A DNA stretch of 52,113 bases, taken from the IMG/VR virus record IMGVR_UViG_2541047719_000006, one strand, 5' to 3'. Shown in pieces: positions 1 to 32,423 of this stretch (the first letter of the stretch is position 1; each line of letters begins with the position of its first letter). Under the pieces are notes generated by a model. It did not search any database and was not told where the DNA came from. It worked only from the letters and a program-made list of their open reading frames with translations. The DNA comes from a virus (Duplodnaviria > Heunggongvirae > Uroviricota > Caudoviricetes). The position numbers and the translations under genes are program-made.

Positions 1-1236
1 CTACGATAACCGCGCATTCAACATAGCTACCTGTTCGTCGTTCATGTCATCAATCCACATACCGTAAATTTCATACACCATCTGCGCAGTTTCATGCCCC
101 ATCTGGCTGGCTATAAATGCCGGGTTCGCTCCTGCCGTCAACAGCCAGCAGGCAAAAGTATGCCGCGTATGGTACGGATTACGGCGGCGAATACCAGCAC
201 GTTTTACTGCTGCATTCCACCTTGCCCCCAAACTGCTTACCGAGTAATAAGGTTTCTGTTTTCCGTTACACACCCTTGGCATGAAAACAAAATGCAGTTT
301 TTGCTTTTCGGTTCTGCCGTACTCCCGATGATAAAAGGTGATTTCGCTTTTGCGATGATGCCCGGTCAGTTTGTATTGCTCCTTCAGTGCTTCAAGAGCA
401 GGCTGCAGTAGTGTTACTGTCCGGATCCCGGCATTTGTTTTTGGGGGACCGAACATATCAAGTATCGTCAGGTTTCTTCTGACATTCACTATTCCCTTTT
501 CGAGATCCACATCCTCCCACGCCAGAGCTGCCAGTTCCCCGTGACGAAGTCCTGAGTAAACGGCAAATTTCCACAAGTTCTGGCTCTGTCCTTTTTCACT
601 TTCCATTAATGCATTGAATTCTGTTTTAGATAACGGATCAGGCTTTATTCTGTTTCGCTGTAATTTTTTTACTCCTTCAAATGGTTTGGTTGATATAAAT
701 CCCGACTGATACGCAAAACGTAACAGCGAACAGAGCAGGGCGATATAGTTATCAACTGTGCGCACGGTTCTTCCTTTTTTGTTGGATCTTGGATTATCCA
801 GGTAAAGCGTTTCTCCATGCAGCAGTTCATTCCGGTAGTTTAAGATATCGCTATAACGAATATGTGATATCGGGGTACTTTCACAAATTATTATTCTGAG
901 TGTTTTTAATTGTGATTTCGTTTTCTTCATTGTGTTTGTTGTTAACTCTGTCTCTTTAATTTTTGTCCAGATATCACAAAGCTCCCCGAACGTTTTTATG
1001 ACTCTCGTTGTCACCATTTTTGCCCCAGTGCTGGACTGGGGAAAACGTCTTAAATACTCAAATTCACCGGAGTTTATTTCATGAACTATCAGCGCTCTTA
1101 AATTTCCGGCCTTTTTAATATTACTGTTTGTAATCTCCCAGCCTTTTAATGTTTCCCGACATCGTTTTCCTCGAAACATGAACCAGATGCGAATGTATTT
1201 ACCTCGAATCTCGACACCTGTTGGTAATTTAGACAT
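1..1236 (-). CDS. intR: Tyrosine recombinase, Rac-type prophage integrase
   Basis: 411-aa ORF; C-terminal R..HxxR..Y integrase motifs (NPYHTRHTFA, MVYEIYGMW); sits at prophage end next to excisionase; ATG at 1234-1236, stop at window edge. Confidence 0.9.
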   Translation of the reverse strand: MSKLPTGVEIRGKYIRIWFMFRGKRCRETLKGWEITNSNIKKAGNLRALIVHEINSGEFEYLRRFPQSSTGAKMVTTRVIKTFGELCDIWTKIKETELTTNTMKKTKSQLKTLRIIICESTPISHIRYSDILNYRNELLHGETLYLDNPRSNKKGRTVRTVDNYIALLCSLLRFAYQSGFISTKPFEGVKKLQRNRIKPDPLSKTEFNALMESEKGQSQNLWKFAVYSGLRHGELAALAWEDVDLEKGIVNVRRNLTILDMFGPPKTNAGIRTVTLLQPALEALKEQYKLTGHHRKSEITFYHREYGRTEKQKLHFVFMPRVCNGKQKPYYSVSSLGARWNAAVKRAGIRRRNPYHTRHTFACWLLTAGANPAFIASQMGHETAQMVYEIYGMWIDDMNDEQVAMLNARLS

Positions 1237-1237
1237 A

Positions 1238-1453
1238 TCATGAGTCTTTGATAAACTGATTTATCTTTGGATAGTTGTACCAGATAATCCCTCGCTTACT
1301 GTCTGGCTTCCCTAAAGGAGATACTCGTTTGAAGTGGAAGCCTTCCACCCAACAGTTCTGGCGGTATGCTTCAATTTGTCTGGCCCCCAGACCAGTGCGA
1401 AGCATCAGGCCGTATTCAACCATCCACTCTTCATTAAAGATTACTTGTGCCAT
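1238..1453 (-). CDS. xisR: Excisionase-like protein (Rac XisR/YdaQ-like)
   Basis: Small ORF immediately upstream of int with 1-nt gap; internal ATG at 1453 preceded by GAGGTGA RBS gives 71 aa; ORF-track start at 1477 is an extension. Confidence 0.7.
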
Positions 1454-1552
1454 CGCATCACCTCTGGCAGGCGCCAATGTTAGACTGAAATTGACGCCCG
1501 ATGTTGATTATTAATAATCAGCTATGAAGTTTTAATTTGAATACAATGCAAT

Positions 1553-1741
1553 TCACGACGACTGAAGTTTCTCGCAATTAAAATTTATCAGTTTTACTTT
1601 CTGCTCTCTGGAAACGCCTGCTTCTTTTTTACCTGAGAGCATTTTTTCGCATTCTGATTTGGTTAATTTTGTTTTTGAGTACCTTGTCCAGTTAGTAGGA
1701 GTGCCACCTTCCTTTTCAATAGTGGCGGTAATTTTATACAT
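1553..1741 (-). CDS. ydaC: YdaC-like small prophage protein
   Basis: ORF 1553..1813; start at 1741 preferred because of GGAGGTG RBS 5 nt upstream; overlaps ralR stop by 8 nt; alternative starts 1753 and 1813. Confidence 0.5.
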   Translation of the reverse strand: MYKITATIEKEGGTPTNWTRYSKTKLTKSECEKMLSGKKEAGVSREQKVKLINFNCEKLQSS

Positions 1742-1928
1742 GAACACCTCCATTATTATTTCCAGTGGTTCGTTTATTCCATCGTTCGAGTGCTTCTTTT
1801 TCACTTCCACCATAGCCGGTTCGGGATTCGCATCCGTTACACTTCGCGCGGTAATATCCTGAAATGGCTTTCACCGTTACTGATGGACAACCACAAAAAG
1901 GGCATGGTTTGACTTTTTCATACCGCAT
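1734..1928 (-). CDS. ralR: Restriction alleviation protein Lar/RalR (type I toxin in Rac)
   Basis: 64 aa from internal Met; CPFCG ... C..C zinc-ribbon-like motif typical of the Lar family; Rac position between recombination module and ydaC. Confidence 0.8.
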   Translation of the reverse strand: MRYEKVKPCPFCGCPSVTVKAISGYYRAKCNGCESRTGYGGSEKEALERWNKRTTGNNNGGVHV

Positions 1929-1991
1929 TGTCTTTTCTCTCATAAAATAAAATTTTGTGATGGCGGTGAGGCTACACCGCCAAAGTAAATA

Positions 1992-3044
1992 TCAGGAGCC
2001 GATATATTCTGGTTTCATATCTGTCAGTGTCGTTTTATACGCCTCATATAATTCACCCAGATGTGGCCGGGCAGCATTCAGCGTATTTTCCAGAGCAGTA
2101 AATTTTTGTTCTGCTTCTGGATCACCTGAAGAAGGTAGGTCATTTATCATCTTCTCGATACGGGCAATAGCATTGAGACGGTGATGACGCTGAACCACTT
2201 TTCCTTTAAGTTCCGTATAGAGAGCGCCAAGTGTATTTTTATGATCTTCCACTTCCTGGCGAAGTGCTGTTGTTTCCCCGGTGCTTTGTGCCTGCTCAAT
2301 ACGTTCACGGAAAGCATCGATCCAGTTTTCCCCGGCATCCTGCTCAATAATTGTTGTTTCACGTTCCACGCGGCAAGCGGAAGTGTTTTTATGTTCCTGA
2401 ACCGGATTAATGATTTTTTCCTGTGGCTCGTCCAGTTCGTCCCTGGTGTACACTCCAAGAATCACTTCGGGGCAATAAAGGCGCGCCCAGCGTTTCAGCG
2501 CCAGATAGGCAAGCTGCTGGCGAGGATCGTCGGCCCATAGCGTTGAATTACGTGTTCTGGCCTGCGCCAGAAGTAATTCCAGTACGCGTGGTTTACTTTC
2601 GCCGCGTAGTGTTGCCTGGACACGAACACCGATCCCGTTTTCATCGGCCAGCTTCCAGCCAGGTACACGATATTCTTTCCCTTTGTCGCTCTTCCTGATT
2701 TCAAATTTCCCGATAATTTTTTCCCACGGCCCGAACCAGTCATATTCAATACGCCCGGTTAGCGGCCCACGAGTACTGATTACGGCATTAACCAGTTGCG
2801 CTTCATATCCGAGCACACCATTCACAACGAAAGTTTTCTGAGCTACTGCGTAAGGGTTCATTTGCCACTGCATCGCCTGCATGGTGATGGCCATGCAGTC
2901 TGATGGATTTCCCCGGAGGTGTTCCGGTACAGTAGCCATGCCGGAAGCCATTACCTGGGAAAATGTCTGAATTGCAGCCAGGGACTGAGGGCTGAAAACC
3001 GCAACATTAGAGTTAATATTTTCTTGTTGAGTTAATTCGTTCAT
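1992..3044 (-). CDS. Single-strand annealing protein, Redbeta/RecT superfamily
   Basis: 350-aa ORF directly downstream of the exonuclease gene; segment QMNPYAVAQKTFVVNGVLGYEAQLVNAVI resembles lambda Bet GLNPW...VVGVDGW core; GAGGAAGG RBS; not the K-12 RecT sequence. Confidence 0.6.
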   Translation of the reverse strand: MNELTQQENINSNVAVFSPQSLAAIQTFSQVMASGMATVPEHLRGNPSDCMAITMQAMQWQMNPYAVAQKTFVVNGVLGYEAQLVNAVISTRGPLTGRIEYDWFGPWEKIIGKFEIRKSDKGKEYRVPGWKLADENGIGVRVQATLRGESKPRVLELLLAQARTRNSTLWADDPRQQLAYLALKRWARLYCPEVILGVYTRDELDEPQEKIINPVQEHKNTSACRVERETTIIEQDAGENWIDAFRERIEQAQSTGETTALRQEVEDHKNTLGALYTELKGKVVQRHHRLNAIARIEKMINDLPSSGDPEAEQKFTALENTLNAARPHLGELYEAYKTTLTDMKPEYIGS

Positions 3045-3055
3045 TGTGTCCTTCC

Positions 3056-6000
3056 TCAGATGCTCAGTGCTTCAAGACGACGAAGATCAAAGTCGTTTAA
3101 TTCGTCGGTATAACTTTCGGTAATCGGTGCTGGCCAGTTGTTTGTCTCCAGGGCTTCGTTTATCTGGCGTAGCGTCCGGCGATATTCCTGTCGACCAAGT
3201 TCCAGGAGTTCCTGCGAGGCTTCCACGACTGCCACCCAGTGATAGCCAGCATCTTTGTTGACGAAGATCCAGAAAAATTTGTCCAGATTTGCCACATCGC
3301 AATACATTGCTGCGCTGAGGTGATAATCACGCTCAATAATTTCACGGTGCAGGCGATCTTTCAGTCGTTCCTGTCGCACATAACCGAGGCTGACTGACTT
3401 CACGTCGGCGCAAATGCTTTCGTATGGCAGCCGGATTTCGATATCAGGACGGACCCTGATTTCCAGCCCGGTTTCTTCATCAAACCCGAAATAGCTGATT
3501 TCAGATTTGCGATCCGGGTGGTTGAGTAGCCTTGCTGCATCAGTATTGTTTTGCAGTGCAGCGTGAATATTTTTTGCCTGTTCATACATATCTGAACTGA
3601 TAAACGTTTTCCCGGCGTTTTCTTCTTGCTGGCGTTTTTGCCAGTCCTCCAGGGTAACCAGTTCCGGGCGGATTTTCCGAGCGATTTCGGTTAATTGCTC
3701 TTTCGTGCCACTGATGTTGTAAGGCAAAGATTTAGCACGTTCTTTTTTCGCCAGTTCTGGATCTACAGTTTCAATTTGCTCCAGAAGTTGCTCCCGTGTT
3801 CCACTGGTTTTCAACAGAGGAGGGAGGTTTGCATTGTATTCTCTAATGCAGGCTTTCATTGCCGATGCAGTATGTTTCTCCTCCTCCGGAATACGCCGGA
3901 ATTCCACCGGAAGCGAACCGTAAAGGATGCCTGTTTCTTCGGCTCCAGCACTTACAGACAGTGGCTGTATAGGAGTGCTGTTGTAGCTTTCGATCCACTC
4001 TTTCATCTGCTCTGGTGTCATCAGTGCTGGCAGACTGGCATTGTGTTTTTTAATGATGGCGATCAGTTCGCTAGAAGTAGTAACCACATATTCAGGAACT
4101 GGTACCGGAATGGCATATTCATCAGCGAATTTATCCGTTTCCAGAACATAGCTGTGAATGATCCGCCCACGCAGCAGTGCATCACTTTCCTCGTTCGGAA
4201 TAGTTCCGGCAATGTGCCGTCCGTGGTAATACATCAGGCTGATACGGGCATCCTTCAGCATCGTGCTGCTTATTCCGTTGGCGGAGTGATAAACCTCGTT
4301 CGGGAGGTTTTCATAGCGGCCAGGCTCGAAATATGACGGCCACATGATTTCAGTTGCTACAGGAGCTGACGCTTCACCAGTTTCATCACTGCAATCACGA
4401 TGCGGATCGCTGCCAGCATTCTCATTGTGCGGATGTTCAGCGCCTTCCATTTCCACCGGATCTTTTTCCTTAGCTTCAACCTGATTCTCTTCATCGAATG
4501 TTTCCTGGTATGTTGCGTCGCCCGTCACCGCCCCACAGTCAGGGCAGTTATCTCCGCCAGTCTGACCGCAGGCATTGCAGACTATTTCCGGTTCCTGTTG
4601 CACTACTGGCTCAGGTTGTTTCACATCCGGGCTGGTTTTTTCCGTTTCTGGCTGGTTCTGGTACACAGAATCGCGAGTCTGGATCCCCTTAACCCATTTC
4701 GGATCGTTCGGGTCGCTAATTCCGTCAACAAATTCACCACGTGATGCAGCAAGCAATTTATCGGCATCGACAGGATTTTTTGATGGAATGTTTTTCCGGG
4801 CTTCATGGAGTTCTGCCCGCAGTTCCTGATATTTCGCATCAACAGAATTTACCTGTGACTGAGCATCCAGCGGCTGCGTGTCCTGATGATGTTTAGTTGC
4901 GTCCGGTTCCATTGTTTCAGCCTCTCCCTGTTCATCTGCCGTTGTTCCAGATGGTTGCGGTTTTTCTTCATCATCCTGTTTTCCTTCTTCTGTTACTCGC
5001 TGCGGCATCGGGGCAGAGGAGCGACCGCAGGCAATATCCACGATTTCCGGATCAGGGTTGGCATGATCGGTTTCAGTCAGTACTTTGTTCAGATATTCAG
5101 TGACGTGCGCGGGGGTGACCTCGATCCCAATTGGTGCTTCTTTTACGGACGCAACCACGATGGCGCGGGAATAATCCAGCCCGCCAGGCATGGTGATGAA
5201 TTTGTCGCGGAAAACAGAAAAGGGCGGTTTATTTTCAGCGATAATTTCCTCAATGCGTTTAGCGTGTGCCGGATGAAGGTTATAGATGTCCACGTCCATT
5301 GAACGGGCCAGTACGCCAGTGGCTACGTCGCGCGCCAGTGACGTAAGATCGTGGACGAAACCTTCGCCGCGATCGGTGAGGTTCCCGCCGCCAGCATTAG
5401 CACCGGAAGCCGTGCGAGTGATGCGTGAAACACGATTACCCTTCATCCACTCTTTTGTCAGCAGTCCTCGATCGGTGTAGTCAGCGTTCAGGTATGCTTC
5501 GAAAAAAGCAGTTAACAGTCCCAAGTCTGAATTACCAGGATTAGGGAAAACTTTGTCAGTGTCACGAACCAGTTTGTGGAGATCGCGAATTTCCAGCGGG
5601 TCGAGCAGGCTGGTTTTGTGGGAAACAGCCAGGGCAGTAACAGCCGGTAGTTCTTCAGCCCGTGCAATGTGTAATGCCTGGAGTTCGCCGCGTGAAACGT
5701 GCGTTACCGGTTTTTCGCTGCCGTGTTGAGCAAGCCAACGAATGGGCAGTTCCTGGCCAGAAATTGGGAGTAGCATATTCTCCTCAATCTCAGTCATGTC
5801 TTCGCCGTTGACGTTGGTATTGCCTTGATAGTGAGCGTTGTCTGGTGCTGCTCCCGGTTTTAGTTCCCATGTCATGGAGTCTTTGCTGAGTTGATAGCGT
5901 TCACTCCAGGTAAAATCGATCTCACCTTCAGCGGGCAGGTCATTAACGACAGGAAAATTCGTGGCAACAGCTTTAAAATAGCTGCTCAGTTTTTTACCTG

Positions 6001-6127
6001 ACTTAACGATCAGGTAGTCCAGAGTGGCACAGGTCGATTCAAAATCGTCACTTGCCCACAGGACGACGTCAGGTTCACCGGATGATTTTTTCGCTTTCCG
6101 TAACAGGAAGAGTGGTTTTGTGCTCAT
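3056..6127 (-). CDS. recE: Exodeoxyribonuclease VIII (RecE-like), mosaic with divergent C-terminal nuclease domain
   Basis: 1023 aa; N-terminal ~590 aa closely match remembered K-12 RecE ([26 protein letters not shown]...); C-terminal region differs and is longer but keeps RecE-like motifs ([24 protein letters not shown]). Confidence 0.8.
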
Positions 6128-6257
6128 TGTTTTTTAACCTCAACTCAGATTAAAATTCGTTTTGTTCAGTGAATGATCTTGCCGGATACACACTGTTCAT
6201 AGCCTGCGCCATACGCAGGCTATTTCTTTCAGATTTCACCTTTTAATTTCATTGCAA

Positions 6258-6503
6258 TCAGAGTTGCCAGAAATCCGGCTTTTTTTCTGCGGGCAGATTC
6301 TTTCCGATATGCACCAGGCTCATTTTTTTGACACCTTCGTGAAGTGTTTTAACGTTGCCTGATGGACCGTCGATATCAACTACAGTGAATGGGGTTTCTT
6401 TATTTTCTGTTTTAATCACGTAGCCAATACGCTTTCCTTCCAGATTAACTTCGTGAACAATGTCATCAGTAGTTACAACAGTGGCTTCATAACTGGTAAT
6501 CAT
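6258..6503 (-). CDS. racC: RacC-like prophage protein
   Basis: Internal ATG at 6503 with AAGGAG RBS gives MITSYEATVVTTDD...; Rac position upstream of recE. Confidence 0.6.
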   Translation of the reverse strand: MITSYEATVVTTDDIVHEVNLEGKRIGYVIKTENKETPFTVVDIDGPSGNVKTLHEGVKKMSLVHIGKNLPAEKKPDFWQL

Positions 6504-6577
6504 GTTTTTCTCCTTAATTAAGGTTGAGCGAATCCCTGCCATTGCTGGCATAAATTCAGTTTCGCATAGTCAGTTAA

Positions 6578-6748
6578 TTAAAGTTCGTGTGCCATCTGGT
6601 CTTTTTCGGCACATATTTCACTACAATATTTTTTCATTTCCGTCGTTGGGATAACTCCACGCATGAAATGAAGTGGTCTTTTAATGCTTTTGCTTTCTTT
6701 AACTTCTTTATCGCAAAGGTGGTAAGCACATTTTATTTTCTTAGTCAT
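6578..6748 (-). CDS. ydaE: YdaE-like small Cys-containing protein
   Basis: 56-aa ORF read by hand ([56 protein letters not shown]), absent from ORF track because <60 aa; start overlaps kilR stop (TGATG). Confidence 0.6.
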   Translation of the reverse strand: MTKKIKCAYHLCDKEVKESKSIKRPLHFMRGVIPTTEMKKYCSEICAEKDQMAHEL

Positions 6749-6969
6749 CACCATGACTCCGCCTTTACAGGTAAACCATCACGACCGAGGAAGACTTTAA
6801 TCATGCAGTCAGTAATGCATGTTTTTGTGGTCAGGTTACGAATATAAAGCTTTCGCTTTTTAATATTGTTTGCCGAGGCAATATATGTCCGGCCGTTATG
6901 AAGAACATAATCACCAGGAGTCACACACTGACGAGGTATTTCATCAGTTCCGAAGTGATGAGCAATCAT
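6748..6969 (-). CDS. kilR: KilR-like cell-division (FtsZ) inhibitor
   Basis: 73 aa from ATG 6969 (GGAG RBS); [24 protein letters not shown]...; position matches Rac kilR. Confidence 0.7.
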
Positions 6970-7460
6970 AATTATCTCCATTTTCACAAATGAACTTTGT
7001 TGATGCGGTGCCTGGTGCCTCCAGGTGACGTTAACCAGTTAACAATTAACGCCGGATAATCCACCCATAACACTGATGCTTTTAACTGTTCCGCGTGCGC
7101 TTAGCCGCATTCACCGCATCACAAAATTCACTTTAAAAAGGGCGGACATCAGCCGAACTTCAAGAAAAAACTGATGCCGCCAAGACTACACACAGCAATG
7201 TCGTTATTTACAACCGGAGGCGCACTCCCACCATTTAAATTTAACAGACAAGACCGACTCTTTATGGATATCGGAAATGCGCCTTCGTGTTGCGCCCAGT
7301 TTTATTTCACCACCTCCGGGCTTCGGTGGTCTCGGCTATACCCCTACAGCGAGAGCTTGTGTTAACATTTCAATACCCTTACAGTTGAGAGTTATTGATA
7401 TGTTGGATGTATTTACTCCATTGTTGAAACTTTTTGCTAACGAGCCACATCGAAAGACTT

Positions 7461-7889
7461 ATGTATACGATTATCATTTTTGGTCTCACTCTCTGGCTGA
7501 TACCGAAAGAGTTTACTGTCGCATTCAATGCTTATACTGAAATACCTTGGCTCTTTCAGATTATCGTTTTTGCCTTTTCTTTCGTGGTCGCCATTTCCTT
7601 CTCAAGATTGCGAGCACATATTCAAAAGCATTATTCATTACTACCAGAGCAACGAGTATTGCTTCGTTTATCTGAGAAAGAAATCGCTGTATTTAAAGAT
7701 TTCCTTAAAACAGGAAATCTTATTATCACTTCTCCTTGCCGTAACCCGGTTATGAAAAAATTAGAACGGAAGGGCATCATTCAACATCAGAGTGATAGCG
7801 CAAACTGTTCTTATTATCTCGTCACCGAAAAATACTCCCATTTTATGAAGTTATTCTGGAACAGCAGGAGTAGACGTTTTAATCGTTAG
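7461..7889 (+). CDS. sieB: Superinfection exclusion protein B (SieB), possibly N-terminally disrupted
   Basis: Membrane-protein ORF MYTIIIFGLTLWLIPKEF...; the expected N-terminus MLDVFTPLLKLFANEP is encoded from ATG 7400 in a different frame, implying a 1-nt indel. Confidence 0.6.
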   Translation: MYTIIIFGLTLWLIPKEFTVAFNAYTEIPWLFQIIVFAFSFVVAISFSRLRAHIQKHYSLLPEQRVLLRLSEKEIAVFKDFLKTGNLIITSPCRNPVMKKLERKGIIQHQSDSANCSYYLVTEKYSHFMKLFWNSRSRRFNR

Positions 7890-12025: not shown

Positions 12026-12040
12026 TTGCCGGAGGCGCTT

Positions 12041-12457
12041 ATGGCAAAAGTATTTACACAAGAAGAGCGGGAAAAAATCAAGGGACAGGTTGTTGAGCTA
12101 GTACGCCGGAGTGGGCGCGAGACGTTACGGCAACTGGAAGCCAAGACAGGTGCGACAAGATATCTGATGAGCGTTCTCGCCAGAGAGCTGGTTGCCAGTG
12201 GCGATGTATACAACTCTGGCTACGGGTTATTCCCGTCTGAACAGGCTCGTAAGGACTGGCAAAATGCCCGCAAAAAACTATCTAGGGCAAAGGTGAAGAA
12301 ACCATCTGTGGTTGATCCGGACCTTATCTGGTCATTACCTGACGGAGAAATACGTCGTTATGACAGGCACCAAAACATAATTTGCTGTGAGTGCCGGAAG
12401 AGCGAAGTTATGCAGCGCATACTGGCATTTTATCAGAGAAATTTTCGTTATTTATAG
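12041..12457 (+). CDS. Hypothetical protein
   Basis: 138 aa from ATG 12041 with GGAGG RBS; basic C-terminal half with CCEC; no family recognised. Confidence 0.4.
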   Translation: MAKVFTQEEREKIKGQVVELVRRSGRETLRQLEAKTGATRYLMSVLARELVASGDVYNSGYGLFPSEQARKDWQNARKKLSRAKVKKPSVVDPDLIWSLPDGEIRRYDRHQNIICCECRKSEVMQRILAFYQRNFRYL

Positions 12458-12620
12458 ACGTTACTCGATTAAAGAGCATTAGTTCAGATGTGAATTGACA
12501 TTTTCACGGCACAGGATTGAGCTAGCGTGGTTGTCTGCTTTGTGTCAAAAGCAGATATTACCAGATTTAGACATCTATTCCCGATAGCCCTGCTCTGATG
12601 CTACACTCTGTGCTATTTTC

Positions 12621-13307
12621 ATGACCCCAATAAAAATATTTATGACTATTGCTGATTTCAAACGGCCTAAATTGGAGCTCCCAAACGGGGCAAACAAACT
12701 ACTACTGCACTCTTGCTGTGCTCCATGTTCCGGTGAAGTGATGGAGGCGCTTCAGGCCTCGGGAATCGACTATACCATCTTTTTCTACAACCCGAACATT
12801 CATCCTCAGAAAGAGTATTTAATTCGTAAGGATGAGAATATTCGCTTTGCTGAACAACACGGCGTGCCATTTATTGATGCTGATTACGACACAGACAACT
12901 GGTTTGAACGTGCCAAAGGAATGGAATGGGAGCCCGAGAGGGGGATCCGTTGTACCATGTGTTTTGACATGCGTTTTGAGCGGACAGCGCTGTACGCTGC
13001 TGAAAATGGTTTCAGTGTGATCAGCAGTTCACTGGGCATTTCACGCTGGAAAAATATGCAGCAGGTTAACGACTGTGGGCGGCGAGCCGTCGCGCATTAT
13101 CCGGGCATGGTGTACTGGGATTATAACTGGCGCAAGCAGGGCGGCTCGTCCCGCATGATTGAAATCAGCAAGCGCGAAAAATTCTATCAGCAGGAATATT
13201 GTGGCTGTGTGTATTCTCTGCGCGATACCAATCTACACCGCAAATCTCAGGGACGCCCTCTTATCAAAATTGGTCAACTCCACTACGGTAAAGAAGAGAA
13301 GGAGTGA
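12621..13307 (+). CDS. DUF208/QueH-like epoxyqueuosine reductase family protein
   Basis: Motifs [42 protein letters not shown] match remembered QueH conserved Cys pattern; alternative start 12642; TTGACA hexamer at 12496. Confidence 0.55.
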
Positions 13308-13544
13308 TTTTATGGAGCACCTTTCTTATTGATTTCATATTGGCGAGGTAGCGGGAGTTAAGTAAAATTGCTGCGGGTGCTTGAGGCTATCTGCCTCAGG
13401 CATGAACACCAAAAGGCAGATAGAGAAAAGCCCCAGTTAACATTACGCGTCCTGCAAGACGCTTAACATTAATCTGAGGCTCAATCTATGCTGAACACAT
13501 GTAGGTTAGCCTCTTACGTGCCGAAAGGCAAGGAGAAGCAGGCT

Positions 13545-13700
13545 ATGAAGCAGCAAAAGGCGATGTTAATCGCCCTGATCGTCATCTGTTTAACCGTCAT
13601 AGTGACGGCACTGGTAACGAGGAAAGACCTCTGCGAGGTACGAATCCGAACCGGGCAGACGGAGGTCGCTGTCTTCACAGCTTACGAACCTGAGGAGTAA
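13545..13700 (+). CDS. hokD: Hok/Gef family type I toxin (HokD/RelF-like)
   Basis: 51 aa MKQQKAMLIALIVICLTVIVTALVTRKDLCEVRIRTGQTEVAVFTAYEPEE; AAGGAG RBS; in-frame upstream extension to 13488 in ORF track. Confidence 0.8.
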   Translation: MKQQKAMLIALIVICLTVIVTALVTRKDLCEVRIRTGQTEVAVFTAYEPEE

Positions 13701-13908: not shown

Positions 13909-14088
13909 ATGAGCTACGCACTAAAAAAACACCCGCGATTGACTATTCCCCCTCGCGATAAAAGCGTTGTGGCAGCTCCGCGCCCGGCTATCGATGAAAA
14001 TTGCACTCATCGTGAGCAGGTGAAAAATGCTTTCGATTTCGGTTTTTCTCGTTACGAGAAGGCAATGGAAGATCTTTCAAAAGTGTAA
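13909..14088 (+). CDS. Small protein, candidate antitoxin partner of Doc
   Basis: 59-aa ORF read by hand (MSYALKKHPRLTIPPRDKSVVAAPRPAIDENCTHREQVKNAFDFGFSRYEKAMEDLSKV); ends 18 nt before Doc start; not in ORF track. Confidence 0.35.
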   Translation: MSYALKKHPRLTIPPRDKSVVAAPRPAIDENCTHREQVKNAFDFGFSRYEKAMEDLSKV

Positions 14089-14106
14089 TGATGGGTATTG
14101 TGCTCT

Positions 14107-14592
14107 ATGGCTGAGATTGTTGAAGGAGTGCACTACCTTTCGGTTGATGATCTTACTGAAATTAATCGCCTTTTAATTGAGCTTCAAACACCAGATGAAC
14201 CTGTTGGTGTGCTGAGTGTTGATAATTTAAGTTCTTCTCAGTCTCGTCCCAGTATGGTTCGATGGTATGAGCAAACCAACGACATGTTTGTACTGGCATC
14301 GGTATTGATTGAAAGTCTGATTCAGAATCATCCATTTGCCAATGCAAACAAGCGCACAGCAATGATGGCTGGTGCGGTTTTTTTATTGTTAAATGGATAC
14401 GAATTAACCGCACCAGGCGATGAAGTTGTGGAGATGGCTGAGGGGCTGGCCTGTAAAATTTATACACGAGAAGAGCTTGAAAATTGGTTGTGTTATTGGT
14501 CTCGTGCGTATGACAGTCGGGAATTATGTAAAACAGGCGCAACTATTGTTTTGTATGAAACTATCAAGCTTAAAATAGAACAGCAAAACTAA
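14107..14592 (+). CDS. Doc (death-on-curing) family toxin, Fic fold
   Basis: Motif HPFANANKRTA matches Doc signature H-x-F-x-(D/N)-A-N-K-R (P1 Doc HIFNDANKRTA); ORF track start 14098 is TTG, ATG at 14107. Confidence 0.7.
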   Translation: MAEIVEGVHYLSVDDLTEINRLLIELQTPDEPVGVLSVDNLSSSQSRPSMVRWYEQTNDMFVLASVLIESLIQNHPFANANKRTAMMAGAVFLLLNGYELTAPGDEVVEMAEGLACKIYTREELENWLCYWSRAYDSRELCKTGATIVLYETIKLKIEQQN

Positions 14593-16884: not shown

Positions 16885-16960
<76 letters not shown>

Positions 16961-16963
16961 TAT

Positions 16964-17038
<75 letters not shown>

Positions 17039-19125: not shown

Positions 19126-20583
19126 ATGAATACATCTCATGTAAGAGTTGTTACTCATATGTGTGGGTTCCTGGTTTGGCTCTATAGTCTTTCAATGTTG
19201 CCACCAATGGTTGTAGCATTGTTTTATAAAGAAAAAAGCCTGTTCGTTTTCTTTATAACTTTCGTTATATTTTTTTGCATTGGTGGCGGAGCGTGGTATA
19301 CAACTAAGAAATCTGGTATTCAATTACGTACCCGTGATGGGTTTATTATAATTGTAATGTTTTGGATTTTGTTTTCTGTTATTAGTGCATTCCCTTTATG
19401 GATTGACTCAGAACTTAATTTAACGTTTATTGATGCTCTATTTGAAGGGGTTTCTGGAATAACAACAACAGGAGCAACTGTAATTGATGATGTTAGTTCA
19501 TTACCTCGGGCATATTTGTACTATCGGTCACAGTTAAATTTTATAGGTGGCTTAGGAGTTATTGTTCTGGCGGTTGCTGTATTGCCATTATTGGGTATTG
19601 GTGGTGCAAAGCTTTATCAGTCAGAAATGCCAGGGCCATTTAAGGATGACAAACTTACTCCCCGCCTGGCCGATACGTCACGGACACTTTGGATAACTTA
19701 TTCTTTATTAGGTATTGCTTGTATTGTCTGTTATAGACTTGCAGGAATGCCTTTGTTTGATGCTATTTGTCACGGGATATCCACAGTTTCGCTTGGTGGT
19801 TTCTCAACTCATAGCGAGAGTATCGGATATTTTAATAACTATTTGGTTGAGCTGGTGGCTGGTTCTTTTTCCCTGCTATCGGCTTTCAACTTCACCCTTT
19901 GGTATATTGTTATTAGCAGGAAAACGTTAAAACCTTTAATCAGAGATATTGAACTTCGTTTCTTTCTGTTAATAGCCTTAGGGGTGTTCATTGTTACCTC
20001 TTTCCAGGTCTGGCATATAGGTATGTATGACTTGCCTGGAAGTTTTATTCATTCGTTTTTTCTTGCCAGCTCCATGCTCACTGATAATGGTTTAGCTACG
20101 CAGGATTATGCAAACTGGCCCACGCACACGATAGTGTTTTTGCTGTTGTCAAGTTTCTTTGGGGGATGTATAGGTTCAACTTGTGGTGGAATTAAGTCAC
20201 TTCGATTTCTTATACTTTTCAAACAAAGCAAACACGAGATAAACCAGCTTTCTCATCCCAGAGCGTTGTTGAGTGTAAATGTAGGAGGGAAGATAGTTAC
20301 AGATCGTGTAATGAGGTCTGTATGGAGTTTCTTTTTTCTTTATACTCTCTTCACGGTGTTTTTTATACTGGTGTTAAATGGTATGGGATATGATTTTCTT
20401 ACATCATTTGCAACAGTGGCTGCATGTATTAATAATATGGGATTAGGTTTTGGGGCTACTGCATCGTCATTCGGAGTGCTTAATGACATTGCAAAATATT
20501 TAATGTGCATAGCTATGATTCTTGGTCGCCTTGAAATTTATCCTGTTATTATATTGTTTTCAGGTTTTTTTTGGCGCTCCTAA
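19126..20583 (+). CDS. trkG: Potassium uptake protein TrkG
   Basis: 485 aa from ATG 19126 matching remembered K-12 TrkG (MNTSHVRVVTHMCGFLVWLY...); multi-pass membrane protein; markedly AT-rich. Confidence 0.9.
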   Translation: MNTSHVRVVTHMCGFLVWLYSLSMLPPMVVALFYKEKSLFVFFITFVIFFCIGGGAWYTTKKSGIQLRTRDGFIIIVMFWILFSVISAFPLWIDSELNLTFIDALFEGVSGITTTGATVIDDVSSLPRAYLYYRSQLNFIGGLGVIVLAVAVLPLLGIGGAKLYQSEMPGPFKDDKLTPRLADTSRTLWITYSLLGIACIVCYRLAGMPLFDAICHGISTVSLGGFSTHSESIGYFNNYLVELVAGSFSLLSAFNFTLWYIVISRKTLKPLIRDIELRFFLLIALGVFIVTSFQVWHIGMYDLPGSFIHSFFLASSMLTDNGLATQDYANWPTHTIVFLLLSSFFGGCIGSTCGGIKSLRFLILFKQSKHEINQLSHPRALLSVNVGGKIVTDRVMRSVWSFFFLYTLFTVFFILVLNGMGYDFLTSFATVAACINNMGLGFGATASSFGVLNDIAKYLMCIAMILGRLEIYPVIILFSGFFWRS

Positions 20584-20720: not shown

Positions 20721-21512
20721 ATGAGCGAGAAATTGAAGATCGTCTATCGCCCTTTACAAGAACTGTCTCCGTATGCACACAACGCCAGGACACACAGCCC
20801 TGAGCAGGTGGCACAACTGGTAGAAAGCATTAAGCAATTCGGCTGGACTAATCCGGTGCTGATTGATGAAAAGGGCGAAATTATTGCTGGTCACGGTCGC
20901 GTTATGGCGGCTGAAGTGCTCAAAATGGATTCCATTCCGGTCATCGTTCTGTCTGGTTTGATGGATGATCAGAAAAAGGCGTACCGCCTGGCAGATAATC
21001 GCCTGCCGCTGAACGCTGGCTGGGATGAAGAACTGTTGCGGATGGAGCTGTCGGAGCTAATCAATGCTGATTTTGATATCTCCCTGACAGGATTCAGCCC
21101 GACAGAAATTGATGAACTGTTGACGGATGTTTTGCCAGGTACAGGAAATGAGGAGGAGCCGTACACGACGAAAATTGATACGCCTGTTTATGAGCCGTCG
21201 GGCGATAAACCGGACATCAGTGAGCTGTACGACGATACGAAAACTCAGGAGCTGATCAGCCGGATACGTTCGGCGTCCCTTGAGCCCGATATCGAAAAAT
21301 TCCTCCTGTGCGCGGCAGAACGCCACACGGTGTTTAATTTCAGCAGAATTGCGGACTATTACGCTCACGCCCCCGCTGAAATTCAGTGTTTTTTCGAGGA
21401 GTCGGCGCTGGTGATCATTGATTATCAGCAGGCTATTGAAAATGGATTTGTCCGGATGACGCAGCGCATGGTGGAGATCATGCATGGTGGTGAGGAGGAG
21501 GAATATGCGTGA
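20721..21512 (+). CDS. ynaK: ParB-like nuclease domain protein (YnaK-like, full length)
   Basis: 263 aa; N-terminal ParB/Srx-like segment VYRPLQELSPYAHNARTH ... GHGRVMAA; Rac synteny after trkG. Confidence 0.7.
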   Translation: MSEKLKIVYRPLQELSPYAHNARTHSPEQVAQLVESIKQFGWTNPVLIDEKGEIIAGHGRVMAAEVLKMDSIPVIVLSGLMDDQKKAYRLADNRLPLNAGWDEELLRMELSELINADFDISLTGFSPTEIDELLTDVLPGTGNEEEPYTTKIDTPVYEPSGDKPDISELYDDTKTQELISRIRSASLEPDIEKFLLCAAERHTVFNFSRIADYYAHAPAEIQCFFEESALVIIDYQQAIENGFVRMTQRMVEIMHGGEEEEYA

Positions 21513-31413: not shown

Positions 31414-32343
31414 GTGAGTTCAGGTGCAAAGGTTATCTCGGCATTTATCCGGGAGACGGTTGCAGGCACTACGCCAGCAAGTGGTGACTGGAGTTTATTA
31501 AAACGCACAAGCTGGGGAGTAAAACCCACCCAGAATAAAGGCGAAAATAATGAGATTGGTGGCTCCCGGATGGCTCAGGGGGCGACGCCTGGCACTGTGG
31601 ATGTCGGCGGTGATGTTGGTACCAAATTTCGCTGGGGTCAACATGATGATTTTCTTGCATCCTGTTTCGGCGCGGAATGGTCAGGCGATTCTCTGACAAT
31701 GGGGAATGAGCGAATAACATTTTCTCTGGCGACCTATGCGTCCGATGTCGGAATTGCCTCTGTCGTCAGAGGAGCGCAGGTTGGCTCATGGAAAATGCAG
31801 ATCCCTAACGACGGCGATATTACAGCGACCGTAACCTTTGCCGGACTGGACTGGGAATCAAAGGCCGATGATACGAATTTTATCAAAGGCGAACCTGTGG
31901 AGAGTGCAGGAAAGCTACGTTATTCGTTTAAGGAGGTTTCAGCAGTAAGCCTGAATGGTGTTGCCGGAGGTAACGGTTTTTGTATCGACAGTTTTGATAT
32001 TCAGTTCGATAACAAACTCCAGACACAGCGTTGTATCGGGACTGGCTCGCCTTATGCAGGAGCAAATATTCCGACTACTTTTACACCGTCCGGTACGGTG
32101 ACGCTTTCATGGTCTAAAGCCGCGTGGGAAATCTGGAGTAAAACACTGACTGGAGAAACAGTTCCGTTCAGCTTCACGCTTTCGAATGGAGAGGGGGCAT
32201 ACACTTTCAGTTTCCCGAAGGTTCAGGTGTCAGGTGAATGGCCTGATGGGGGTAATAGCGACATTATCCAGGTTCAATTGAGCATTACCGCAGCAGATGA
32301 AGCACCTACGATAACCAGAAAAAAAATTCCCCGGCTGCCGTGA
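31414..32343 (+). CDS. Major tail (tube) protein
   Basis: 309 aa; GTG start with AGGAGG RBS; directly upstream of the tail chaperone pair. Confidence 0.6.
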   Translation: MSSGAKVISAFIRETVAGTTPASGDWSLLKRTSWGVKPTQNKGENNEIGGSRMAQGATPGTVDVGGDVGTKFRWGQHDDFLASCFGAEWSGDSLTMGNERITFSLATYASDVGIASVVRGAQVGSWKMQIPNDGDITATVTFAGLDWESKADDTNFIKGEPVESAGKLRYSFKEVSAVSLNGVAGGNGFCIDSFDIQFDNKLQTQRCIGTGSPYAGANIPTTFTPSGTVTLSWSKAAWEIWSKTLTGETVPFSFTLSNGEGAYTFSFPKVQVSGEWPDGGNSDIIQVQLSITAADEAPTITRKKIPRLP

Positions 32344-32423
32344 TCGCAAAAGCCAGTGCTGAGGCGATTAGTTGATTTTCCGTTATTCCTCCTGTGGTAC
32401 TGCCCTACAGGGGGACGCATTGA

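Follow-up and report, generated by a model that had tools for sequence, protein, structure and literature searches.

The question raised by the present locus is why a prophage of Escherichia coli should carry a gene for a second enzyme of the last step of queuosine (Q) synthesis, the reduction of epoxyqueuosine (oQ) to Q in tRNA, when the species has QueG for this purpose. The gene, queH, lies in the IMG/VR virus record IMGVR_UViG_2541047719_000006, a stretch of 52,113 nucleotides that is called the window here; positions are those of the window, and residues are those of the 221-residue protein. The window is a Rac-family lambdoid prophage integrated beside ttcA. E. coli K56-43-un, a strain from urine, matches its positions 9000-33000 at 100% identity, and the prophage is near-identical to those of E. 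coli strains 042 and APEC O1. We consider it quite probable that queH encodes a functional, cobalamin-independent oQ reductase, which was captured from an Enterobacteriaceae chromosome with its promoter and is now cargo in several lambdoid prophages.

The product of queH is a member of the QueH family. This had been proposed in a first-pass annotation, made from the sequence alone, on the basis of a 228-residue open reading frame (ORF) with cysteine motifs that included QEYCGCV. The ORF (12621..13307, plus strand) was found with all of the quoted motifs and is the sole long ORF in the interval 12458-13307; the coding sequence (CDS) that we assign within it has the same coordinates as the RefSeq CDS WP_021554705.1. 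The protein matched the Pfam family PF02677 (QueH/DUF208/IPR003828) far above the cutoff (220.6 bits against 23.5, E = 1.9e-65) and over positions 1-174 of the 175 in the profile. It was the sole family matched in the Pfam scan, which gave no homology to QueG or the reductive dehalogenases. By sequence, the only relatives of the protein in the PDB are the entries for QueH of Thermotoga maritima (7lc5, E = 5e-22). An AlphaFold2 model, built from a 60-sequence alignment, reached a predicted local distance difference test (pLDDT) value of 94.8 and a predicted template modelling (pTM) score of 0.91, and Foldseek placed it on 7LC5 with a template modelling (TM) score of 0.93 normalised to the target and 0.75 normalised to the query, at a root-mean-square deviation (rmsd) of 1.2 Å and an E value of 3.6e-14. 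The top five PDB matches were all QueH structures (target-normalised TM 0.91-0.93, rmsd 1.2-1.9 Å) and were followed by TtuA, GMP synthase and other distant PP-loop enzymes, with E values of 5e-5 or weaker. Both the profile search and the structural comparison thus agree with the family assignment of the first-pass annotation.

The conserved metal-ligand residues of QueH are also present. All six family cysteines, C25, C26, C104, C107, C187 and C189 (CC ... CxxC ... CxC), which in QueH bind the [4Fe-4S] cluster and the adjacent iron, are found in the window protein and are invariant in the 60-sequence alignment. When the protein was aligned with 240 homologues, 120 proteobacterial and 120 Thermotoga-like, four of the six cysteines were invariant, and C104 and C187 were each substituted in one sequence. 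The further near-invariant residues H23, N50-P-N-I, E58, Y59, R62, E99, R103, S134, K137, Y182, Q184 and Y186 are present as well. The enzyme from T. maritima (7LC5, 7LC7, 9DEU) shares with the window protein the Pfam family, the fold (rmsd 1.2 Å over 180 columns), the six cysteines, and the NPNI, E-Y-R, S-K and Y-Q-Y-CGC motifs. However, the two proteins are only 30% identical, and the window protein has a 19-residue N-terminal and an approximately 25-residue C-terminal extension, both of which are conserved in the proteobacterial homologues.

The two proteins also differ at Asp13 of the T. maritima enzyme, which is Cys29 in the window protein (CCAPD versus CCAPC). All 120 of the proteobacterial homologues have Cys at this position, as do 109 of 113 representatives at 50% identity, whereas Asp was found in 107 of the 120 Thermotoga-like homologues. 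By these frequencies, Cys29 is the majority, family-typical state and no peculiarity of the phage copy. Two mutants of T. maritima QueH have been deposited in the PDB, C9S (9D86) and D13N (9DCO). The UniRef representative of T. maritima QueH itself reads CCAPN (Asn13), the same as the "D13N mutant" 9DCO, and the "wild-type" 7LC5 reads CCAPD; Asn at this position is rare in the family (1/120). QueH domains 54-60% identical to the window protein also form the C-terminal ends of much longer proteins of 1398, 824, 761 and 719 residues, among the representatives at 50% identity.

The closest relatives of the gene outside phages are chromosomal. The window protein is 76-92% identical to chromosomal QueH of Alpha-, Beta- and Gammaproteobacteria, which marks QueH as a housekeeping enzyme of very high conservation. 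Outside phages, the closest genes are those of Scandinavium (92%), Kluyvera (91%) and Enterobacter (89-90%), and across the Enterobacterales examined, including also Erwinia, Serratia, Photorhabdus and Providencia, the proteins are 79-92% identical to the window protein and of the same length. All of these genes lie in ordinary chromosomal settings, whereas the queH of the window lies inside a prophage between a DUF977 gene and hok/sok. Even outside the Enterobacterales, in Sphingomonas, Rhizobium, Paracoccus, Neisseriaceae, Stenotrophomonas and Lysobacter, the identity to the E. coli prophage QueH is 76-80%. Some oddly named records (Bacillus subtilis SK7B5 and an "Avacidaminococcus" metagenome-assembled genome) hold 77-86% identical copies, which are probably contamination. 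The GC content of queH (48.5%, against 47.1% for the window) is unremarkable.

The chromosomal neighbourhood of queH is not constant. In Scandinavium, the neighbours are genes for a short-chain dehydrogenase/reductase, a metallo-beta-lactamase-fold protein and Hcp; in Enterobacter, they are those for isocitrate dehydrogenase (icd), chorismate mutase and a GGDEF protein, with the order icd-chorismate mutase-queH. The order purL-queH-glrK was seen in one Erwinia-like genome, and we rejected it as a general context since it occurred in none of 80 genome loci, which indicates that the chromosomal context of queH varies. In Enterobacter sp. ECC-175, queH lies two genes from icd (locus positions 677-3669), where lambdoid prophages of E. 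coli classically integrate. This proximity is suggestive of how a phage met queH, but the position of the gene in the interior of the prophage does not fit simple aberrant excision.

In E. coli, the phage gene is always accompanied by queG. The survey covered 5,426 complete genomes, all of which have queG at a different chromosomal locus. This is in agreement with the statement of the first-pass annotation that E. coli normally uses QueG, and it means that a phage queH is always a second oQ reductase. The queH cassette was found in 1,031-1,047 of these genomes (about 19%), and the matches listed are annotated as "epoxyqueuosine reductase QueH". The word unexpected, used of the second enzyme by the first-pass annotation, is relative, as RefSeq already labels the gene QueH in about 1,000 genomes. 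The cassette occurs in at least four prophage backgrounds and always directly after the DUF977 gene. These are the Rac prophage at ttcA, the Qin-like remnant of REL606, an O157:H7 prophage and an ST131 prophage with a LexA-like repressor. In the O157:H7 prophage, queH is followed by an NgoMIV-type restriction-modification system, consisting of a cytosine methyltransferase and an endonuclease (locus positions 5851-7861). Escherichia albertii has an identical copy of queH. Of the phage genomes deposited, HannyBb, an isolate, is the only clear carrier, with the gene annotated as hypothetical; the remaining matches are metagenomic fragments without annotation or very large records that may not be true phages. 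The PHROG match of the protein, PHROG 3217, is labelled only "unknown function".

The gene is a discrete cargo insertion, or moron, between conserved phage modules. The related phages 204576, Tritos, Evi and mEp460, which have no queH, match the window only up to about 12560, and an Stx2 phage matches it from 13355 on. In Tritos, the slot between DUF977 and hok is occupied by an unrelated minus-strand gene for a hypothetical protein of 444 residues. Judged from this gene and from the restriction-modification genes of the O157:H7 prophage, the slot is a hot spot for accessory cargo. The idea of a cargo gene put forward by the first-pass annotation is thus borne out by the related phages that lack queH or carry other cargo in its place. 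In IMG/VR, where 80 of the 190 loci found were surveyed, queH was intact in all 80, the DUF977 gene was upstream in 72, and hok/sok was downstream in all 80, within 58-75 nucleotides in 78 of them. The nucleotide homology to chromosomal queH covers the CDS and at most 50 nucleotides upstream (12592-13311 at most).

Among the prophage alleles of queH, the ratio of nonsynonymous to synonymous substitution (dN/dS) is 0.02-0.08, with dS values of up to 0.29, and on this measure the prophage gene is under strong purifying selection. It is also intact inside prophages that bear frameshifts, truncations and insertion sequence (IS) insertions. As for the window itself, the PGAP annotation of the 100% identical prophage of K56-43-un marks frameshifts in sieB and the tail tube gene and truncations of ynaK and a tail-fibre gene (window positions of about 7400-7889, 31414-32375, 20721-20978 and 43188-43554). 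The prophage in the window is thus probably defective while its queH is intact.

Loss of the gene was seen in one laboratory strain. BL21(DE3) had been expected to have queH like REL606, but this was wrong at this locus: compared with REL606, it has a clean deletion of 1,361 bp in the same Qin-like prophage (REL606 locus 4592-5952; NC_012971 1590000-1639000), which takes the 3′ end of the DUF977 gene, a methyltransferase remnant and the whole of queH. REL606 and BL21(DE3), both of which are B strains, thus differ in queH at this locus. Matches annotated as QueH were also found on plasmids of about 72-75 kb from O55:H7 and O103 strains; they were set aside as relevant copies since they are only fragments of 51 residues. 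The fragment has 67-74% nucleotide identity and is present, for example, on pDEC5B-4 of E. coli O55:H7 (locus positions 6009-6164), with about 60 other plasmid matches. It sits among IS remnants and the type III secretion system effector genes nleG and espT, and is the decayed remainder of a second, divergent acquisition of queH.

The 5′ end of the gene bears on how it is expressed. The likely start of queH is the ATG at 12642 and not the one at 12621, because the codons between the two diverge (four of the six change the amino acid among alleles, against the low dN/dS of the gene body), one IMG/VR variant has a 1-nucleotide insertion in this leader, and both the chromosomal homologues and the PGAP/RefSeq annotation start at the equivalent of 12642. 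A start at 12621 was ruled out by the same divergence and frameshift. The first-pass annotation had assigned the gene a TTGACA hexamer of its own at 12496. The hexamer is actually located at 12495-12500; it lacks an acceptable −10 box, and the promoter scan made no call there. It lies within about 100 nucleotides after the DUF977 gene, in a stretch that is also present in phages without queH, and TTGACA is under-represented in the window (17 observed versus 36 expected). We therefore rejected it as the promoter of queH.

A better candidate is the extended −10 element TGcTACACT. It was unchanged in 7 of 7 upstream variants among the 80 viral loci and in 5 prophage types. At −40 to −45 of the chromosomal queH of Scandinavium, Kluyvera, Enterobacter and Symbiopectobacterium, we found TGCTACAAT, TGCTACACT or GCTACAAT; in the nearest genera, TGCTACA(A/C)T stands about 43 nucleotides upstream of the ATG, and the flanking sequence there is otherwise unalignable. 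The pattern GCTAnnnT occurred between −60 and −30 in 17 of 77 genome loci, compared with 2.1 in shuffled sequences and 1 in a control segment. We infer from this conservation that the cassette may have brought its own housekeeping promoter along. Other signals in the region did not hold up. A hairpin at 12533-12556 was rejected as a terminator because it lacks a T-run and because the O157 and ST131 alleles carry changes that break its pairing, and a riboswitch or other RNA element upstream of queH was rejected because Rfam searches (at the gathering threshold over the whole window and at E ≤ 5 over 12300-13600) returned only sok, RalA and two tRNAs. A promoter-like site on the minus strand (12633-12661, TTGAAA-17-TATTTT) overlaps the start of queH and is probably due to chance, with five such sites in the region against six expected.

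We suggest the following sequence of events. A lambdoid phage would have taken queH from an Enterobacteriaceae chromosome together with a short promoter region, and the gene would then have circulated among several lambdoid prophages of E. coli, as a cargo cassette between DUF977 and hok. In the lysogen, QueH, as an iron-sulfur enzyme transcribed from TGcTACACT, would convert oQ to Q at position 34 of the host tRNA-Asp, tRNA-Asn, tRNA-His and tRNA-Tyr, working in parallel with the chromosomal QueG, and could in this way alter tRNA modification. E. coli is known not to synthesize cobalamin de novo. Since QueG needs this cofactor, which the cell cannot make, the phage enzyme would free the last step of Q synthesis from the supply of vitamin B12. 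That the protein would be useful to the host, and is not a mere passenger, is suggested by the purifying selection, by its integrity in damaged prophages and by the housekeeping type of the candidate promoter.

Several points weigh against this reading. In the protein, the Asp13 of the crystallized enzyme is replaced by Cys, the equivalence of the two being read from their frequency in the family, and no NCBIfam model matches. In the DNA, there is no Shine-Dalgarno sequence before ATG 12642, the −35 region of TGcTACACT is poor and the element was not among the calls of the promoter scan, and no terminator is predicted on either side of queH, so that most of its transcription may come from lytic growth, as read-through of the phage early-right operon. 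The clean deletion of the gene did BL21(DE3) no obvious harm, and as for the selective benefit that a lysogen might draw from it, we know of no phenotype that separates oQ from Q.

Alternatively, queH could be only a helper of the lytic cycle. It would then be silent in the lysogen, and induction would bring its transcription from the early-right (pR-type) operon, so that it would top up Q on host tRNAs during late phage protein synthesis and bring the lysogen no benefit. The gene is downstream of the replication genes and in the same orientation, with no terminator predicted between them; the −35 element is poor, and an isolated phage, HannyBb, carries the gene. However, the −10 element is conserved with the chromosomal housekeeping orthologues, which argues for transcription independent of the phage, and queH is kept intact under purifying selection in damaged prophages that probably cannot grow lytically. 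The turnover of tRNA modification within a single lytic cycle would also be a small effect. We therefore regard a purely lytic role as unlikely.

It is far less probable that the enzyme has taken up a different substrate, for example, a small molecule or a DNA base, of phage or host, that is a 7-deazaguanine or bears an epoxide, with a role in anti-restriction or defense. Phages do use Q-pathway enzymes for DNA modification (PMC6884629), and the DUF977-hok slot holds restriction-modification genes in the O157:H7 prophage and is followed by toxin-antitoxin modules in the window. However, the known phage 7-deazaguanine clusters (FolE/QueD/QueE/QueC plus DpdA), which are likewise phage-borne, perform early steps of the pathway and modify phage DNA, whereas queH of the window stands for the last, tRNA-specific step and has no partner genes: the 64 features annotated in the 100%-identical prophage include no DpdA/TGT, preQ0-synthesis, QueC, QueD, QueE or QueA gene. 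No QueA, QueG or QueH was found in the viruses surveyed, DNA-modifying phages included (Hutinet et al. 2019, PMC6884629). PADLOC defense-system models gave no family at E 0.01 or better for the window protein, and its 89-92% identity to housekeeping QueH, with the conserved residues unchanged, gives no sign of neofunctionalization. That queH is a neutral hitchhiker, an inactive or useless passenger spread by linkage to hok/sok and by successful prophages, would suit the constant presence of hok/sok close downstream, the queG gene already in all hosts and the loss in BL21(DE3), but it is equally improbable, as the low dN/dS at substantial synonymous divergence points to selection on the protein itself, no pseudogenized copy occurs among the 80 viral loci, and every listed match in E. 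coli genomes is annotated QueH. None of the three explanations is favored over a functional oQ reductase carried as prophage cargo.

In the prophage, the cassette is located between the replication genes and the nin/Q region, a placement that the first-pass annotation gave accurately (Table 1). Upstream are cI/cro-like regulators, ydaT, the ydaU/ydaV replication genes, DUF1627 and DUF977; downstream are hok/sok, a small-ORF/Doc pair, DUF1367/DUF1364/DUF1133, two tRNA genes and the lysis genes. The two tRNA genes had been noticed before, with the correct remark that tRNA-Thr and tRNA-Gly are not substrates for queuosine. In the cargo region, queH is thus followed by hok/sok and then by a Phd/Doc-like module. 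The last of these, the small-ORF/Doc pair, is missing from the otherwise similar prophage of E. coli 042.

Table 1. Positions of queH, its cassette and other features of the prophage in the window
Feature	Positions	Strand	Remarks
queH CDS	12642..13307	+	221 residues plus stop; epoxyqueuosine reductase QueH, proteobacterial "CCAPC" type
queH cargo cassette	12561..13354	+	candidate promoter, leader, CDS and 47-nt tail; about 0.8 kb; between the DUF977 and hok/sok modules
Candidate extended −10 TGcTACACT	12599..12607	+	TG 12599-12600, hexamer 12602-12607; 34 nt before ATG 12642
Upstream in-frame ATG plus 6 codons	12621..12641	+	probably 5′ untranslated leader, non-coding
DUF977/LygF (Ren-like) gene	12026..12457	+	constant upstream neighbor; annotated in all four prophage types examined
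hok/sok type I toxin-antitoxin	13375..13700	+	sok RNA 13375-13550 (Rfam RF01794, 119.6 bits); hokD CDS 13545-13700
Small ORF	13909-14088	+	precedes the Doc/Fic-type gene
Doc/Fic-type toxin	14098-14592	+	HPFANANKR motif; PGAP: death-on-curing type II toxin
tRNA-Thr(UGU) and tRNA-Gly(UCC)	16885-17038		
trkG	~19126-20583		Rac potassium transporter
RalA antitoxin small RNA	1557-1735	+	Rfam RF02694, 215 bits; adjoins ralR (Rac type I toxin-antitoxin pair)

The coexistence of two enzymes for the oQ step has parallels in other bacteria. QueH reportedly does not need cobalamin, and Acinetobacter baylyi ADP1 is said to have been studied genetically with respect to its QueG and QueH; the window protein shares 79% identity with a homologue from Acinetobacter. 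E. coli makes oQ-tRNA via tgt and queA (PMC9508795). The subsequent QueG step is cobalamin-dependent, and a queG knockout of K-12 accumulates oQ (PMC4646009), which means that K-12 is without a backup enzyme. In other bacteria, QueH replaces QueG in a non-orthologous manner (PMC5372724). QueG of E. coli (YjeS) has the same assigned reaction as QueH (EC 1.17.99.6) and is present in the same host, in every genome that bears queH, but it depends on cobalamin and iron-sulfur clusters and is unrelated to QueH in sequence and fold. QueH has been described as iron-dependent, in contrast to the cobalamin-dependent QueG, and Staphylococcus aureus has both enzymes, apparently differentially expressed, for which cofactor availability has been proposed as the reason (PMC13443448). 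S. aureus and A. baylyi ADP1 thus resemble the present case in having two non-homologous enzymes for one step. However, both genes are chromosomal in these two species, whereas the second enzyme of E. coli is strain-variable and phage-borne.

The QueH family, its reaction and its structure are already known, and the gene is already named QueH in RefSeq. What is new is the genetic context, namely QueH as prophage cargo; the 8 million full texts that we searched for QueH or DUF208 in combination with phage, prophage or E. coli gave no description of its carriage by E. coli prophages. We tentatively propose, as a possibility somewhat short of an even chance, a lysogenic conversion of the tRNA epitranscriptome, in which uninduced lysogens express queH from the imported housekeeping promoter and the completion of queuosine becomes independent of vitamin B12. 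If this is true, then under cobalamin scarcity, or upon loss or repression of the BtuB receptor, about 19% of E. coli strains, including ST131, O157:H7, O104:H4, APEC O1, 042 and REL606, would have Q in place of the oQ of K-12-like strains. E colicins and some phages also enter the cell through BtuB. The enzyme would then be the first phage-borne one shown to act on the modification of a host tRNA anticodon by the Q pathway.

Queuosine biology has E. coli as its reference organism, and the last step of the pathway is, in textbooks, dependent on QueG and imported cobalamin. If the prophage QueH is active, this view would hold only for strains without the cassette. Q synthesis would then run to completion without B12 in many clinical and veterinary lineages and in REL606, the ancestor of the Lenski experiment, but not in K-12, and probably not in BL21(DE3), from which queH has been lost at this locus. 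REL606 and BL21(DE3) thus form a natural pair of strains for asking whether oQ and Q differ in physiology. An active enzyme would also bear on the interpretation of tRNA-modification data obtained in different E. coli backgrounds, and it would add a tRNA-modification enzyme to the known functions of prophage cargo.

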